This document shows positions 7,197-9,841 of a DNA stretch of 64,000 bases, in pieces. The stretch covers positions 2,464,001-2,528,000 of the forward strand of contig CAWGRW010000009.1 of NCBI GenBank assembly GCA_963825135.1. Direction: 5' to 3'. The notes beneath the pieces are model-generated. The model saw nothing but the letters and a program-made list of their open reading frames with translations, had not been told where the DNA came from and did not search any database. The stretch is from an uncultured bacterium (GTDB lineage Bacteria; Desulfobacterota_D; UBA1144; Nemesobacterales; UBA2774). A program made the position numbers and the translations under genes. Each line of letters starts with the position of its first letter. Positions within the stretch are counted from its first letter, which is position 1.

Positions 7197-7404
7197 GATG
7201 ATTTGCCGTGATGATTGCTCCGCCCGAAGGAATATTCAATGTATTCATGCGCATACAAATATGAATACATTGTTAAGCCCGCCCTTCACAGGCGGATGCG
7301 GCGAGCATACAGTCGCTCCCCGGCTTCCCCAACGCTCCCGCATGTCAGCTGCGGCTCGCCGCCCCGTTCGTCCTTCATCTCTATTTCCCTCCCCCTTGAA
7401 GGGG

Positions 7405-7578
7405 AACAGTTGCAAGCGAGTACTGTTTCGAATGTGTGAGAAACAGGTCGAACCGGGCTGATTTCTCGACCGTTCATATTCAAGGGAAAAATTGCCATAA
7501 GATAAAACCAACTGGTCGCTCTCCCAACAAAAGCACTGATGTATATTAACTCGGCAGGGTGATGGTTAATACAAAATA
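7405..7578. mobile_element. Putative non-autonomous mini-element (copy A, with copy D nested at ~7421-7508) inserted in a CCCC/GGGG palindrome
   Basis: Host halves ttccctcccccttgaagggg (7385-7404) and gtcaggatgggggtg (7579-7593). Insert begins AAC with stem cagttg/caactg closing before GTCG. It matches the copy at 9716 in 27 of 38 gapless positions. Confidence 0.6.
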
Positions 7579-7603
7579 GTCAGGATGGGGGTGTTACCTT
7601 TCT

Positions 7604-8030
7604 GTAGGAGCGGCTTCCAGTCGCGAAAACTAACCTGTCATTGCGAGGGAACGGTTCTGAACGTGTGCAAGAACCGGTCGTCGTCGGCTGATTGCAAGTA
7701 CGCTCTTCTATTGATGCACGAGGGTCGCACGGGCCAAATTACGCATTTTGTGACCGCGGTAATCTCGTCTTTTCTTTTCCGACATTACAGAATTTGCGTT
7801 AAGAAAATCGATTGTACGAGCGTTAAGAATCTTACGTGGGCCGGGGTGGGATCGGAAGATTTAGCGAGTACATGAGATTTTTAGCACAATTCTGTAGTCG
7901 GATGATTTTTGCTTCTTTTCATCAAGGAAAAGAAGGATAAATAAAACAGCCTTTCACCTTATCCGTGTCTTTGCTTTGTCTTTTCGAAAGACCACACTAC
8001 GTGTGTGTCGCGGCTGGAAGCCGCTTCTAC
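7604..8030. repeat. Inverted pair of GTAG-type REPs (REPIN-like) enclosing ~380 bp
   Basis: gtaggagcggcttccagtcgcga (7604-7626) and tcgcggctggaagccgcttctac (8008-8030) are near-exact reverse complements. Confidence 0.75.
7650..7741. mobile_element. Putative mini-element copy C inserted in a GTCATTGCGAG palindrome
   Basis: Host halves tgtcattgcgaggg (7636-7649) and ...gtgaccgcggtaatctcgtc (to 7769). Insert: AA-cggttct-gaacgtgtgca-agaaccg-GTCG...ccaaatta, 92 nt. Confidence 0.55.
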
Positions 8031-8136
8031 AAATTTAGGAGCGTTACTCCGAGCGCCACGGAGTAACCGCGGCAATCCCTCATTCCTCCCCCAAAAAAAT
8101 TGACGCTCCTTCTATTGAATATATAATAGTTCTGCC

Positions 8137-9573
8137 ATGGAAAAATTCGACTTAACAGTGATAGGAACGGGGCCCGGGGGATACATTGCCGCCATACGCG
8201 CGGCACAGCTCGGTATGAAAGTAGCGGTCATCGAAAGGGATAAACCCGGAGGCGTCTGCCTCAACTGGGGATGCGTACCCTTCGAAATCGATATTTAAAA
8301 TGCGCGGAGGTTTATCAATACTTCAAGCATTCGGGTGAGTTCGGCATCGAACATAAAGGGCTTACTTATGACTTCTCCAGGGTCATAGACAAGAGCCGGA
8401 ACGCGGCGGATACACTCACGAAGGGCGTTGAATTCCTCTTTAAGAAGAATAAAGCCACGCTCTTTAAAGGGGTCGGCAAGCTAATTACTAACAATAAAGT
8501 CGGCGTCATACAGGAGAACGGTCAGATAGAGATAGACACCGGCAAAATTCTCATAGCCACCGGATCGGTCCCCATGACCCTGCCCGGTCTCGAGATCGAC
8601 GGCAAGCAGATAATGACGAGCGACGAGGCGATATTCCACAGAGAGGTCCCCGATTCGGTCGTGGTTATCGGAGGAGGGTACATCGGGGCCGAATTCGCCT
8701 ACGTCTATAACTCATTCGGAAGCAAGGTGACTATAGTCGAGATGCTGGATCACCTTATCCCCGGGGCCGACGAAGAGGTATCCCGGGAGCTCGAGAAGAA
8801 TTTCAAAAAGAACGGAATCGAAGTTCTCACCTCCGCAAAATTCAAAGAGGTCAGAAAGAAGAAAAAGAATATCGATGTGATAGTAGAGAAGCTCGCGGAC
8901 AAGAGCGAGGCGACAATTACCGCCTCGATGGTGCTCGTGGCAGTCGGAAGGCGTCCCGTCGCGAACGACGCGCCTACGTCCTTGAGCTATTACAAGAAGT
9001 CGGGCGATATCGGGTTAAGCGAACCTCCGCATAGAGTTAAACGAGAGGGGTTTCATCAAAACGGACGACTCGTACATGACCACATGCGATAACGTCTATG
9101 CGATTGGCGACGTAATCGGGCCGCCCCTTCTGGCACATAAGGCGTCCGATGAAGGCGTAGTCGCGGTCGAGAAGATGGCGGGGCTCAAGAGCAAGGTCCA
9201 CTACGACAACATCCCCGGCTGCGTGTATTGCCAGCCCGAGGTATCCATGATCGGCATGACGGAAAAACAGGTAAAGGAAAAAGGGCTCAATTACACCGTC
9301 GGCAAGTTCCCTTTCAGGGCGTCGGGAAAGGCCGTCGGCACGGGCGAGACGGAAGGGTTCGTAAAGATAATCGCGGATAAATCGACGGGAGAGATACTGG
9401 GCGCCCACATTATCGGCCACGGGGCGACCGAGCTTATTGCTGAGATAGGCGTAGGAAGGACTCTCGAAACCACGCCCCTTGAGATAGCAATCACGTCCCA
9501 CGCGCACCCTACCCTGTCCGAAGCGGTAATGGAAGCGGCGCTTGCCGCCCTCGGCAGGTCGAGGAATTTTTAA
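8137..9573 (+). CDS. lpdA: Dihydrolipoamide dehydrogenase (E3), frameshifted in this assembly
   Basis: [26 protein letters not shown]...[20 protein letters not shown]-terminal HAHPTLSE. Extra bases near 8281-8295 and ~9024 split it into three frames. Confidence 0.92.
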
Positions 9574-9589
9574 TATACCCGTGCAGGAC

Positions 9590-9841
9590 GTCATTCCGGT
9601 CTCGTTTCAGAATCTCATCCTCTTATTTCCGTCATGCTGAACTTGTTTCAGCATCTCGTCTTTCTTTCCATTCCCTCCTTAGAAAAAGGAAACTAATGCG
9701 AGCATGCGAGCATTCGGTCGCTCCTACAACAAAGACACCTAGGTTCATTAGCTATTGGCTAGCAATATCAGAAACCAAAACGAGGGAGGATTTACTCTTT
9801 CTTTGTCATTGCGAGACAGCGTCAGCTGTCGCGGCAATCCC
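9590..9841. repeat. Cluster of REP-like palindromes between lpdA and lipB
   Basis: GTCAT...ATCTC elements at 9590-9616 and 9631-9657, a split CCCC/GGGG element at 9671-9793, and gtcattgcgagacagcgtcagctgtcgcggcaatcc at 9805-9840. Confidence 0.8.
9691..9782. mobile_element. Putative mini-element copy B inserted in a palindrome
   Basis: Flanks ttccctccttagaaaaagga and agggaggattt exactly match the reverse complement of the intact element at 1011-1046, minus 5 bp (gggtt). Insert is 92 nt. Confidence 0.62.

Follow-up and report, generated by a model that had tools for sequence, protein, structure and literature searches.

The question raised by this locus is what it is that splits three palindromic repeats between positions 7385 and 9793. 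The window, that is, the whole stretch of 64,000 nucleotides that was analysed, comes from an uncultured bacterium, and the preliminary description had taken the inserts for an undescribed non-autonomous element or a small structured RNA that targets hairpins by shape and is mobilised in trans. This interpretation was supported in part, as a new non-autonomous family lodged in hairpins is indeed present, but the enzyme families that had been named, the targeting by shape and the small RNA were not borne out. The inserts A, B, C and D are members of one real family of ~86-base non-coding modules inside hairpin repeats of Candidatus Dadabacteria.

The four units and the layout of the family

When the sequence was re-read, the three palindromic repeats were found split as described, and the intact repeats used for comparison were found at 1011-1046 (an empty REP5 on the reverse strand, the comparison for B), at 4013-4049 (an empty REP1, GTCATTGCGAGG..GCGACCGCGGCAATCTCG) and at 4062-4100 (an empty palindrome of the REP3 type), the last two on the forward strand. 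The four units and the repeat halves that flank them all read on the forward strand. Unit A (7405-7578) begins with the head AAC-AGTTGC-AAGCGAGT (7405-7421), is interrupted by D, and resumes with CAACT (7509-7513) followed by GGTCGC and the tail (7514-7578); it lies between the left half (TCCCCCTTGAAGGGG, 7386-7404) and the right half (GTCAGGATGGGGGTG, 7579-7595) of a REP3 palindrome, intact copies of which occur elsewhere in the genome. Unit D, which runs from 7421 or 7422 to 7508, is nested in the hairpin loop of A and reads (T)AC-TGTTTC-GAATGTGTGA-GAAACA-GGTCGA with a tail that ends in AAAAC. Unit C (7650-7741) reads AAC-GGTTCT-GAACGTGTGCA-AGAACC-GGTCGT, its tail ends in CCAAATTA, and it separates the left half (GTCATTGCGAGGG, 7637-7649) from the right half (..GACCGCGGTAATCTCG, 7742-7767) of a REP1, which is intact elsewhere in the window. 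Unit B (9691-9782) reads AAC-TAATGC-GAGCATGCGA-GCATTC-GGTCGC, its tail ends in CCAAAACG, and it separates the left half (ATTCCCTCCTTAGAAAAAGGA, 9669-9690) from the right half (AGGGAGGATTTAC, 9783-9796) of a REP5 that is likewise known from intact copies. The count of 27 matches in 38 positions between A and B, starting from GGTCG, was reproduced.

A covariance model (R1) recovered C (52.6 bits), B (48.6 bits) and D (19.1 bits) within the window, and unit A was missed because D splits its hairpin. A unit of the A type with an unbroken hairpin is present at C9:18363 of this genome, and the nesting of D in A recurs in the relative G004, where the stem of the D copy is TATTTC/GAAATA, a compensated change relative to D of the window. 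The same model gave a weak match (14.6 bits, E 0.021) to a lone unit-like hairpin, AAC-GATTTC-GAACGGGTAAC-GGAATC, which stands at 3981-4010 of the forward strand without GGTCGC or a tail.

The layout of the unit is AAC, a 6-bp stem that is variable but paired, a 10-11-nt loop of the form GAGCnAGCGnA, GG(T/A)CGC, and finally a tail, which closes near CCA at about 86 nt from the beginning of the unit. The stem, which had been put at 5-7 bp, is 6 bp long and can run on into the conserved AAC/GGT by way of C-G, an A.G mismatch and A-T. The length of the inserts is also to be corrected, as the 54 of 81 copies with a locatable end have a median of 86 nt from AAC to the terminal CCA, with an interquartile range of 85-87; overall, units are given as 85-92 nt and their tails as about 55-60 nt. 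The AAC start is found in 68 of 81 copies and is invariant in the 40 that were aligned, the motif after the stem is GGTCGC in 37 copies and GGTCGG in 10, and GCGTCC stands beside the stem on the other strand in 13 of 76 units. The resemblance among copies is more than chance, since a strict motif (AAC, six paired bases, a 10-11-nt loop and GGTCG) occurs 50 times in the genome, whereas the genome read in reverse has none and three shuffles gave 1, 1 and 2. In 40 diverse copies 97.5% of the stem cells are paired compared to 81.6 +/- 1.2% in shuffles, and 62 stem cells are changed on both sides compared to 18.7 +/- 6.1, a number that 0 of 500 shuffles reached. In the same copies five of the eight stem pairs show compensatory change and pairing in slid controls does not exceed 44.7%; the hairpin is under selection. 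RNAalifold gave no consensus structure in the tail, and the 5' hairpin is the sole consensus structure. The loops of the units and those of REP1/2 follow one grammar, in which GAGC opens the loop in 32 of 66 cases for units and 26 of 64 for REPs and lengths are 10-13 nt, and the unit hairpin is a REP1/REP2-type hairpin.

Further copies are abundant, as this 3.1-Mb genome gave 125 covariance-model matches and 102 nhmmer matches. Among the other genomes of this family-level clade 20 of 24 carry the family, with 11-143 copies, as do 9 of 9 within the genus, and units were found in one of 16 genomes of sister families. When 185,579 species genomes were scanned, the records with multiple matches were Candidatus Dadabacteria or 'Thermodesulfobacteriota' MAGs. 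In an Rfam scan of positions 1-12000 of the window, A-D were unmatched at E up to 1. With these further copies, the nesting, the lack of an Rfam match and the empty sites given below, the claim was upheld that these repeats are a non-autonomous family, not described before, whose members reside in hairpins.

Host repeats, empty sites and tRNA-linked arrays

The matches sit at fixed points in at least six palindromic REP families and also in each other's loops and at the T-arm/acceptor end of tRNA genes, and the orientation of the unit is fixed within each host repeat. Empty sites exist, one of them paralogous and clean and two positionally equivalent in relatives. A unit of 85 nt is the exact difference between the REP4 paralogues at C10:189639 (filled) and C10:123781 (empty), whose flanks are otherwise alike, and not a single nucleotide is lost or duplicated; G004 carries an intact empty REP5 at the place equivalent to B, and G003 has an intact REP3 where G004 carries A with the nested D. 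That a few host bases are replaced at B was confirmed with the 18 intact copies that share its 13-nt left flank, of which 16 have 5 nt and one has 4 nt at the place taken by B, the remaining copy being a spurious match. Such filled and empty differences could also reflect precise loss and not gain. In strain-variant contigs, which are 95-99% identical to the main contigs, the unit was present in both at all five comparable loci and therefore there is no sign of very recent movement. A second paralogous 'empty site' (C13:16488 against C10:101xxx) was dropped as its alignment was not clean, and the 'empty' match for C10:164728 turned out to be the neighbouring member of a tandem pair and not an empty site. 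A long intergenic comparison of C11 with C10 was too mosaic to read. In a look-up of sequencing runs none of RNA was listed, and the DNA runs matched at most 0.14 of the sampled words.

The absence of a target duplication holds for REP hosts but not for the tRNA-linked copies, each of which has repeats of the tRNA 3' end, 9-15 nt long, at its borders. Fourteen copies of the family form arrays behind four tRNA genes, namely, tRNA-Arg(acg), tRNA-Glu(ttc), tRNA-Arg(cct) and tRNA-Arg(tct). All four arrays have the arrangement by which tRNA-linked repeats are defined, in which units follow a tRNA gene in tandem and every one of them closes with a copy of the tRNA 3' end, here 9-15 nt long. The four copies of the window lack this arrangement and are all lodged in REPs, as are about 64 of the 81 copies on C9 and C10. 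The arrays adjoin the tRNA genes directly and in the orientation of the tRNA, they stand behind tRNA pairs with an identical 3' end, and their copies are oriented opposite to most others of their replichore. Priming of cDNA by tRNA was considered and dropped, as the duplicated end of tRNA-Glu is GCA as in the gene and not CCA as in the mature tRNA.

When 100 copies were grouped by their tails into 35 clusters, the clusters tracked the host repeat in 11 of 11 cases for REP3, 10 of 10 for REP1, 8 of 9 for REP4 and 7 of 8 for REP2. Each host repeat family thus has its own subfamily of units, a pattern that is more readily explained by copying from one homologous repeat to another than by free insertion guided by shape. 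Heads accompany 97 of 111 tail-like loci, so that headless tails are rare, and heads and tails are reassorted: tails are unrelated in 13 of 41 unit pairs with heads at least 96% identical, and the reverse is found in 6 pairs. In addition there is one chimera with a left flank of REP3 and a right flank of REP1.

Enzyme families in trans and a GIY-YIG gene framed by REPs

It had been stated that no cognate enzyme is in the window, where indeed no enzyme candidate lies close to the units, and IS110/IS1111 recombinases and HUH transposases had been brought up as enzymes that act at hairpins. In this genome, which is 94% complete, there was no match to Y1_Tnp, DEDD_Tnp_IS110 or RVT_1 (reverse transcriptase). 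Y1 HUH enzymes of the RAYT/IS200 kind were matched in 4 of 24 family relatives, unrelated to copy number, and IS110 enzymes in 5 of 24, one of them unit-free; across 40 relatives neither follows the presence of units. A Y2_Tnp (IS91) search matched nothing in the genome, and its control search likewise matched nowhere. RAYT neighbourhoods were searched with R1 in G003, G006, G009, G011 and G026, and the RAYT of G003 is flanked by a different REP of the GTAG type (GTAGGAGCGGCTTCCAGCCGCGA) and not by units, one unit lying ~800 nt from the gene. Eight tyrosine-recombinase (Phage_integrase) matches were found in the genome, of which one is a broken gene beside the unit-bearing tRNA-Arg(tct), and the generic ones look like Xer-type or tRNA-island genes. 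Apart from a GIY-YIG gene framed by REPs, no enzyme gene is enclosed by a longer copy of the unit.

This gene (C9:191910-192227), the sole GIY-YIG gene of the genome, lies between REP2 doublets and encodes a protein of 105 residues (PF01541, 56.2 bits), the family being free-standing and ~90-105 residues long. All 14 sequences compared have Y16, Y27, G29, R37, H41, E76 and N95, and the catalytic residues are thus intact. Inverted GTCA-type REPs stand on both sides at 11 of the 14 homologous loci and on one side at the other three. The gene was found in 20 of 24 REP1/2-rich genomes compared to 4 of 17 REP-poor ones, at a cut-off of 10 tags that was chosen after the data had been seen, and within the family in 16 of 20 unit-bearing compared to 0 of 4 unit-free genomes (Fisher p 0.0066, with the reservation that related genomes are not independent data). 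One orthologous spacer is polymorphic for the cassette and measures 904 nt with it here and 94-101 nt without it in G002, G007 and G009. Full units lie in REPs beside 7 of 34 GIY-YIG loci, with the head pointing outward in 10 of 10. GIY-YIG genes are likewise present, in the absence of units, in 7 of 16 genomes of sister families, and in the assemblies searched none was found in the unit-bearing G006, G008, G014 and G024, nor in G026. From this distribution the gene does not suffice for the units, and these assemblies give no proof that it is needed. Units fill the REPs beside the nuclease gene about as often as the general share of filled REPs would predict, which ties the GIY-YIG gene to REPs and not specifically to units; the link covers GTCA-type REPs, and the hosts REP3, REP4 and REP5 are not of that type. 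A literature search gave nothing that joins GIY-YIG with repetitive extragenic palindromic, REPIN, RAYT or extragenic repeats, and nothing relevant on GIY-YIG with mobile intergenic palindromic repeats or on Dadabacteria repeats.

Copying between repeats, its alternatives and known systems

The explanation that we tentatively favour, with confidence somewhat short of even, is that the units are lineage-specific, non-coding, non-autonomous DNA copied between homologous hairpin repeats, with the GIY-YIG protein as the best candidate for the breaker. A hairpin repeat would be broken, a homologous repeat at another genomic site, with a unit already inside, would be copied in the repair of the break, and the unit with a few neighbouring bases would be converted into the empty repeat, which would amount to intragenomic homing. 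Rare jumps guided by microhomology may have found new host families. The candidate breaker would be the free-standing GIY-YIG nuclease, whose gene is framed by inverted GTCA-tagged REPs, sometimes with units inside. Since the unit hairpin is of the REP1/REP2 type and the small GIY-YIG genes are bracketed by the same REPs, homing is the favoured mechanism; we infer both the cutting of hairpins by the nuclease and the copying by repair that would spread the units. The reassortment of heads and tails was counted for repair copying, as it may represent mosaic conversion tracts, and so was the position of the arrays behind tRNAs with a common 3' end. The orientation of the units relative to flanking genes (23/22/16/15) and a strand bias of 49:15 were counted for a process at the level of DNA and not of RNA. 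The direct repeats and the opposite orientation of the tRNA-linked copies are against it in so far as a simple homing model does not predict them. A more far-reaching version, which we regard as doubtful, is a REP system independent of RAYT in which the bare-domain GIY-YIG protein would break hairpin repeats and drive homing, and the units would be non-autonomous passengers that seed the tRNA-linked arrays. An entering unit would then disarm the host hairpin and at the same time bring a fresh, enterable hairpin of the REP type, and hence the nesting.

If the GIY-YIG link is true, a break-and-repair ('homing') route would be added to the transposase route by which hairpin repeats spread in bacteria, and if it fails there is still a well-defined new class of repeats of Candidatus Dadabacteria that is useful for annotation and strain typing. 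How REP-type repeats multiply without RAYT is an old open question, and the origin of tRNA-linked repeats also awaits an explanation; here one lineage unites dispersed units in palindromes, units nested in each other and tRNA-linked arrays, together with filled and empty sites and a testable enzyme candidate.

True transposition, in which a structure-specific enzyme would insert the unit into any suitable hairpin recognised by its shape, is unlikely. The hosts are diverse, as they comprise the REP families, unit loops and tRNA T-arms, the boundaries are precise with the invariant AAC, one insertion is clean, nested units land in loops, and units favour one replication strand by 49:15 within the replichore of negative GC skew, a bias that may be inherited from the host REPs, which are themselves biased. 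However, free insertion would mix host types and unit subfamilies, which are almost perfectly coupled, and the Y1, IS110 and reverse-transcriptase genes missing here, the lack of phylogenetic tracking by Y1 and IS110 and the lack of a longer copy with an enzyme gene besides the REP-framed GIY-YIG count against it as well. Known element classes were also considered. A MITE was rejected, as the clean filled/empty pair has 0 nt duplicated and the ends (the AAC-hairpin and ..CCAAAWT) are not inverted repeats in alignments; a palindrome-associated element of IS200/IS605 was rejected, as there is one consensus hairpin rather than a subterminal pair and the genome has no Y1 gene; derivatives of IS110/IS1111 were rejected, as the units do not track a DEDD transposase (0 here, 5 of 24 relatives); and a casposon was dropped, as no TIRs were seen in the sequences.

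It is improbable that the units are immobile and ride in REPs that move together with them as composites, each host family having received its unit in a single ancient insertion. The host-specific subfamilies would follow from this, and near-identical composites that include the flanks do exist, for example, the GTCATTGC/GATGAATAAGA group of 10, but the same resident repeat is found filled and empty with common outer flanks, 20 of the 35 tail clusters contain a single copy, as is the case for B and C, and heads and tails reassort.

More improbable still is a recombinase site, in which the hairpin and GGTCGC would be att-, dif- or attC-like and recombination there would have made the intergenic regions mosaic. 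The reassortment of heads and tails takes place exactly at the GGNCGC junction, the REP3/REP1 chimera fits, direct repeats of tRNA 3' ends are typical of integrase sites, and the tyrosine-recombinase matches include the broken gene at tRNA-Arg(tct). Against this, the stem arms vary freely yet stay paired, which points to a folded single strand and not to duplex binding arms, one end of an integrated unit still bears an unbroken hairpin and not split half-sites, and the 3' end has no inverse core that pairs with the 5' AAC. The Xer/dif reading was dropped on the sequence of these varying arms.

A functional structured RNA (a small RNA, a processing signal or an insulator) that happens to be repeated is the least probable of all, for although the hairpin covaries around a conserved loop and the arrays stand directly behind tRNA genes in their orientation, the orientation classes of the units relative to flanking genes (23/22/16/15) are random, which argues against a cis-acting RNA, the tail lacks a consensus structure, and A-D are unmatched in Rfam at E up to 1. 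A hammerhead was dropped, there being no stem II.

Among known systems, GTAG REPs have a GTAG tag at one end of a 20-40-nt palindrome, and their RAYT gene is flanked by repeats. The units resemble the REP/REPIN-RAYT system in being short, abundant, intergenic hairpin repeats with stem covariation, and the REPtron layout of a single-copy enzyme gene framed by inverted repeats is mirrored by the GIY-YIG gene between GTCA-type REPs; however, the units lack the GTAG tag, start with AAC, measure 85-92 nt including a long unpaired tail and are lodged inside other REPs, RAYT does not track them, and the candidate enzyme is a GIY-YIG protein. We know of no strand-transfer chemistry of GIY-YIG nucleases. 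Free-standing GIY-YIG homing genes are known from the Seg-type 'intronless homing' of phages. The gene described here is likewise small with intact catalytic residues and present or absent at one orthologous spacer, and the lack of a target duplication and the replacement of neighbouring bases are as in co-conversion. It differs in being a bare catalytic domain of ~100 residues with no DNA-binding extension, and its presumed targets are multi-copy hairpin repeats in one genome.

Insertion sequences that target REPs include IS1397/ISKpn1 in REP loops and ISPpu9/10 and ISPa11 of the IS110/IS1111 family. The orientation-specific entry into REP hairpins is common to these and the units, but the former are autonomous, 1-1.5 kb long and carry their own transposase whereas the units are non-coding and ~86 nt long, and IS110 does not track them. 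The tRNA-linked repeats of E. coli are a further system for comparison, and to our knowledge they have no dispersed relatives. The arrays described here resemble them in standing behind tRNA genes and in the copy of the tRNA 3' end, 9-15 nt long, that comes after each unit, and they differ in that most of the units are dispersed in REPs. In a comparison with attC (RYYYAAC/GTTRRRY) the AAC of the units is invariant, their 3' end has no GTT-containing partner, and the AAC pairs locally with GGT.

ISPpu9 is described as inserted into REPs (PMC8450116). In Di Nocera et al. 2013 (PMC3733652) REP families without a dedicated transposase are reported, REPs are described as regularly lodged within other palindromes in T. 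roseum and H. neapolitanus, and clustered mosaic arrangements are described in Neisseria. The same paper gives CGTC REPs an 8-9-bp stem, a 4-5-nt loop and a CCA tail directly after the stem. Measured against that description the units are not CGTC-tagged REPs, as their stem is 6-9 bp, their loop of 10-11 nt and tail of 55-60 nt are too long, and their tag is mostly CGAC, with CGTC in 13 of 76.

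The inserts and the family to which they belong

At 7385-9793 the sequence agrees with the preliminary description of palindromes split by inserts. Unit C (7650-7741) lies inside the REP1 palindrome GTCATTGCGAG, for which the intact REP1 at 4013-4049 is the comparison, and unit B (9691-9782) lies inside the REP5 palindrome CCCTCCTT..AAGGAGGG, to be compared with the intact REP5 at 1011-1046. Unit A (7405-7578) lies inside the REP3 palindrome CCCCC..GGGGG, which is similar to 4062-4100, and A in turn has unit D (7421/7422-7508) in its hairpin loop. After GGTCG, A and B agree at 27 of 38 positions, as had been claimed, and none of the four units matched Rfam at E up to 1.

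When the 3.13-Mb assembly of this genome (G000) was searched with a strict motif (AAC, six paired bases, a 10-11-nt loop and GGTCG), 50 sites were found; the reversed genome gave 0 and shuffled ones 1-2. Copies in this genome numbered 102 by profile search and 125 with R1, a covariance model built from unit copies. In 40 diverse copies 97.5% of the stem cells were paired compared to 81.6% in shuffles, and 62 were changed on both sides compared to 18.7, a value equalled by none of 500 shuffles; compensatory change was seen in five of the eight stem pairs, and in slid registers, the control for stem covariation, pairing was at most 45%. The units are a large family and not chance. All 40 aligned copies have AAC, as do 68 of 81 overall; it is followed by a variable 6-bp stem, extendable via AAC/GGT, around the loop GAGCnAGCGnA, and then by GGTCGC (37 copies), GGACGC (13) or GGTCGG (10). 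The distance from AAC to the terminal CCA has a median of 86 nt (interquartile range 85-87), the length of the tail, that is the part after GGTCGC, is constant, and the consensus structure is limited to the 5' hairpin, or head.

R1 matched all nine genomes of the genus (11-143 copies each), 20 of 24 genomes of the family and one of 16 genomes from seven sister families. When one genome of each species was scanned with the pattern, the only records with multiple hits were MAGs titled Candidatus Dadabacteria, Thermodesulfobacteriota or delta proteobacterium, and the remaining matches, about one per record, were at about chance expectation.

Host repeats, empty sites and mosaic copies

At least six palindromic repeat families host units, and insertion point and orientation are fixed in each: REP1 (GTCATTGC..), REP1b (GTCATCGC..), REP2 (GTCATTTCGA..), REP3, REP4 and REP5, which are of the C-run/G-run type, and REP6 (..TGTCGAAG). 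Units are also nested in the loops of other units, as D is in A, three copies are on contig C11, and further ones are at C9:369210 and C9:2203397. The family is mostly dispersed inside REPs but includes the members of arrays behind tRNA-Arg(acg), tRNA-Glu(ttc), tRNA-Arg(cct) and tRNA-Arg(tct), in which 9-15 nt of the tRNA 3' end are repeated after each unit. The repeated tRNA-Glu end reads GCA, the same as the gene, and not CCA, which indicates that it was copied from DNA and not from mature tRNA. Behind tRNA-Arg(tct) there are unit copies and a 1.7-kb stretch with tRNA 3'-end repeats at its bounds, and just upstream of this tRNA is a tyrosine-integrase gene split in two frames (C9:2202049-2202556, minus strand).

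Empty sites, for which the preliminary description had suggested looking, were found both within G000 and in relatives. Two paralogous stretches of contig C10 match across the palindrome and far into both flanks and differ by exactly an 85-nt unit, which lies between AAAGGGG and GATTAAGGGGG with 0 nt lost and 0 duplicated. In the spacer between an lpdA-like gene and the next gene, the relative G004 has an intact REP5, then REP1 and then conserved downstream sequence, whereas in G000 this REP5 holds B with GGGTG replaced, and the equivalent spacer of G009 has no repeats; at the position of B, 5 nt stand in 16 of the 18 intact REP5 copies that share its left flank. Beside the E1 gene, REP3 is intact in G003 whereas in G004 it contains A with nested D, the D stem being TATTTC/GAAATA in G004 and TGTTTC/GAAACA in G000, a compensated change. 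The small contigs C1-C8 and C11-C17 repeat parts of C9 and C10 in variant form at 92-99% identity, which shows that the assembly mixes close strains. Main and strain-variant contigs (95-99% identical) were in the same filled or empty state at all five comparable loci, and therefore unit turnover is not very fast.

The orientation of units is unrelated to that of the flanking genes (four classes of 23, 22, 16 and 15), and on the negative-skew replichore 49 non-tRNA units face one way and 15 the other, and the host REPs are also strand-biased. In the four largest clusters the tail subfamily tracks the host repeat almost perfectly (11/11, 10/10, 8/9 and 7/8), and 20 of the 35 tail clusters, including those of B and C, have a single member. 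Heads and tails reassort, as tails are unrelated in 13 of 41 unit pairs whose heads are nearly identical; headless tails are hardly seen. The unit at C10:133671 (also on variant contig C6:207) is a chimera in which the REP3 left flank and the head of one subfamily are joined at GGTCGC to the tail of another subfamily and the REP1 right flank. These observations together look like copying between homologous repeats that leaves mosaic conversion tracts and occasionally jumps to new hosts, and not like free insertion.

Enzymes and REP-framed GIY-YIG genes

Y1 HUH and IS110 enzymes, both named in the preliminary description, did not hold up as drivers. No Y1 HUH, IS110 or reverse transcriptase was found in the 94%-complete G000, and among 40 relatives neither Y1, present in four of 24 family genomes, nor IS110, present in five of 24, follows the units. 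The RAYT-like Y1 gene of G003 is flanked by a separate GTAG-type REP, GTAGGAGCGGCTTCCAGCCGCGA (extracted locus L088, 3920-3950 and 4490-4520), which is also in the window at 7603-7628 and 8007-8032 although G000 has no Y1 match.

The sole GIY-YIG match in G000 is a 105-residue gene (C9:191910-192227) between two REP2 doublets. Inverted GTCA-tagged REPs are on both sides in 11 of 14 homologous loci (14 genomes) and on one side in the other three, the catalytic residues are invariant, and the cassette is absent from the same spacer in three relatives. This framing is a REPtron-like layout, and we found no paper that describes it or links GIY-YIG genes with REPs. Of the genomes rich in REP1/2 tags, 20 of 24 carry this gene, compared to four of 17 poor ones, with a threshold set post hoc; within the family, so do 16 of 20 unit-bearing genomes compared to none of four unit-free ones (Fisher p 0.0066, kin not being independent). 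REP1/2 loops and unit-hairpin loops have the same grammar. Units occur inside the framing REPs at seven of 34 nuclease loci, with 10 of 10 heads outward, and in G004 they do so on both sides of the gene; since REPs in general are filled at about this rate, the firm links are those of nuclease to REP and of unit to REP. Small free-standing GIY-YIG genes framed by inverted GTCA-tagged REPs were seen at different loci in different species (L175-L188, L189-L208). A 60-nt palindromic element, GGGACAATGGG..GGTATATAC..CCCATTGTCCC, is on both sides of the G000 cassette (L175 ~1177-1240 and 1916-1975; C9:191.6-192.4 kb), and related CCGACA..TATAC..TGTCGG elements adjoin the homologous loci in G003, G004, G005 and G009.

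Proposed mode of spread and class

The best-supported explanation is that the units are a non-autonomous DNA module that spreads by being copied during repair from one hairpin repeat to another, homologous one. The likely source of breaks would be the small GIY-YIG nuclease, and a broken hairpin repeat would then be repaired by copying from a homologous one. Such homing is favoured over cut-and-paste because strand transfer is not known for GIY-YIG enzymes. Repair copying accounts poorly for the tRNA arrays and for hosts of the non-GTCA type (REP3-5).

The units are filed as REP/MITE-like. When tested for membership they did not fit GTAG REPs, CGTC REPs, MITEs, or derivatives of IS200/IS605 or IS110; the label tRNA-linked repeats suits no copies other than the 14 that lie behind tRNA genes. 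As regards integron attC sites, AAC is invariant in the aligned copies, but the 3' end has no partner containing GTT. REP families that lack a transposase, as well as REPs inserted within other palindromes, have already been published (PMC3733652); no paper on Dadabacteria repeats was found.

Other features were seen near the units in the window. The dihydrolipoyl-dehydrogenase-like gene at 8138-9573 reads through only with two frame changes, near 8290 and 9040, and is a pseudogene unless the assembly is wrong there. A c-di-GMP-I-GGC riboswitch-like match (7060-7148, minus strand; 58 bits, gathering score 59) lies upstream of the E1-like gene on the minus strand (4187-6946). Finally, a MITE-like repeat of ~125 nt at 7779-7905, with terminal inverted repeats CGACATTACAGAATT / AATTCTGTAGTCG, has many copies, and its motif has a strand bias of 29:0 on contig C9.
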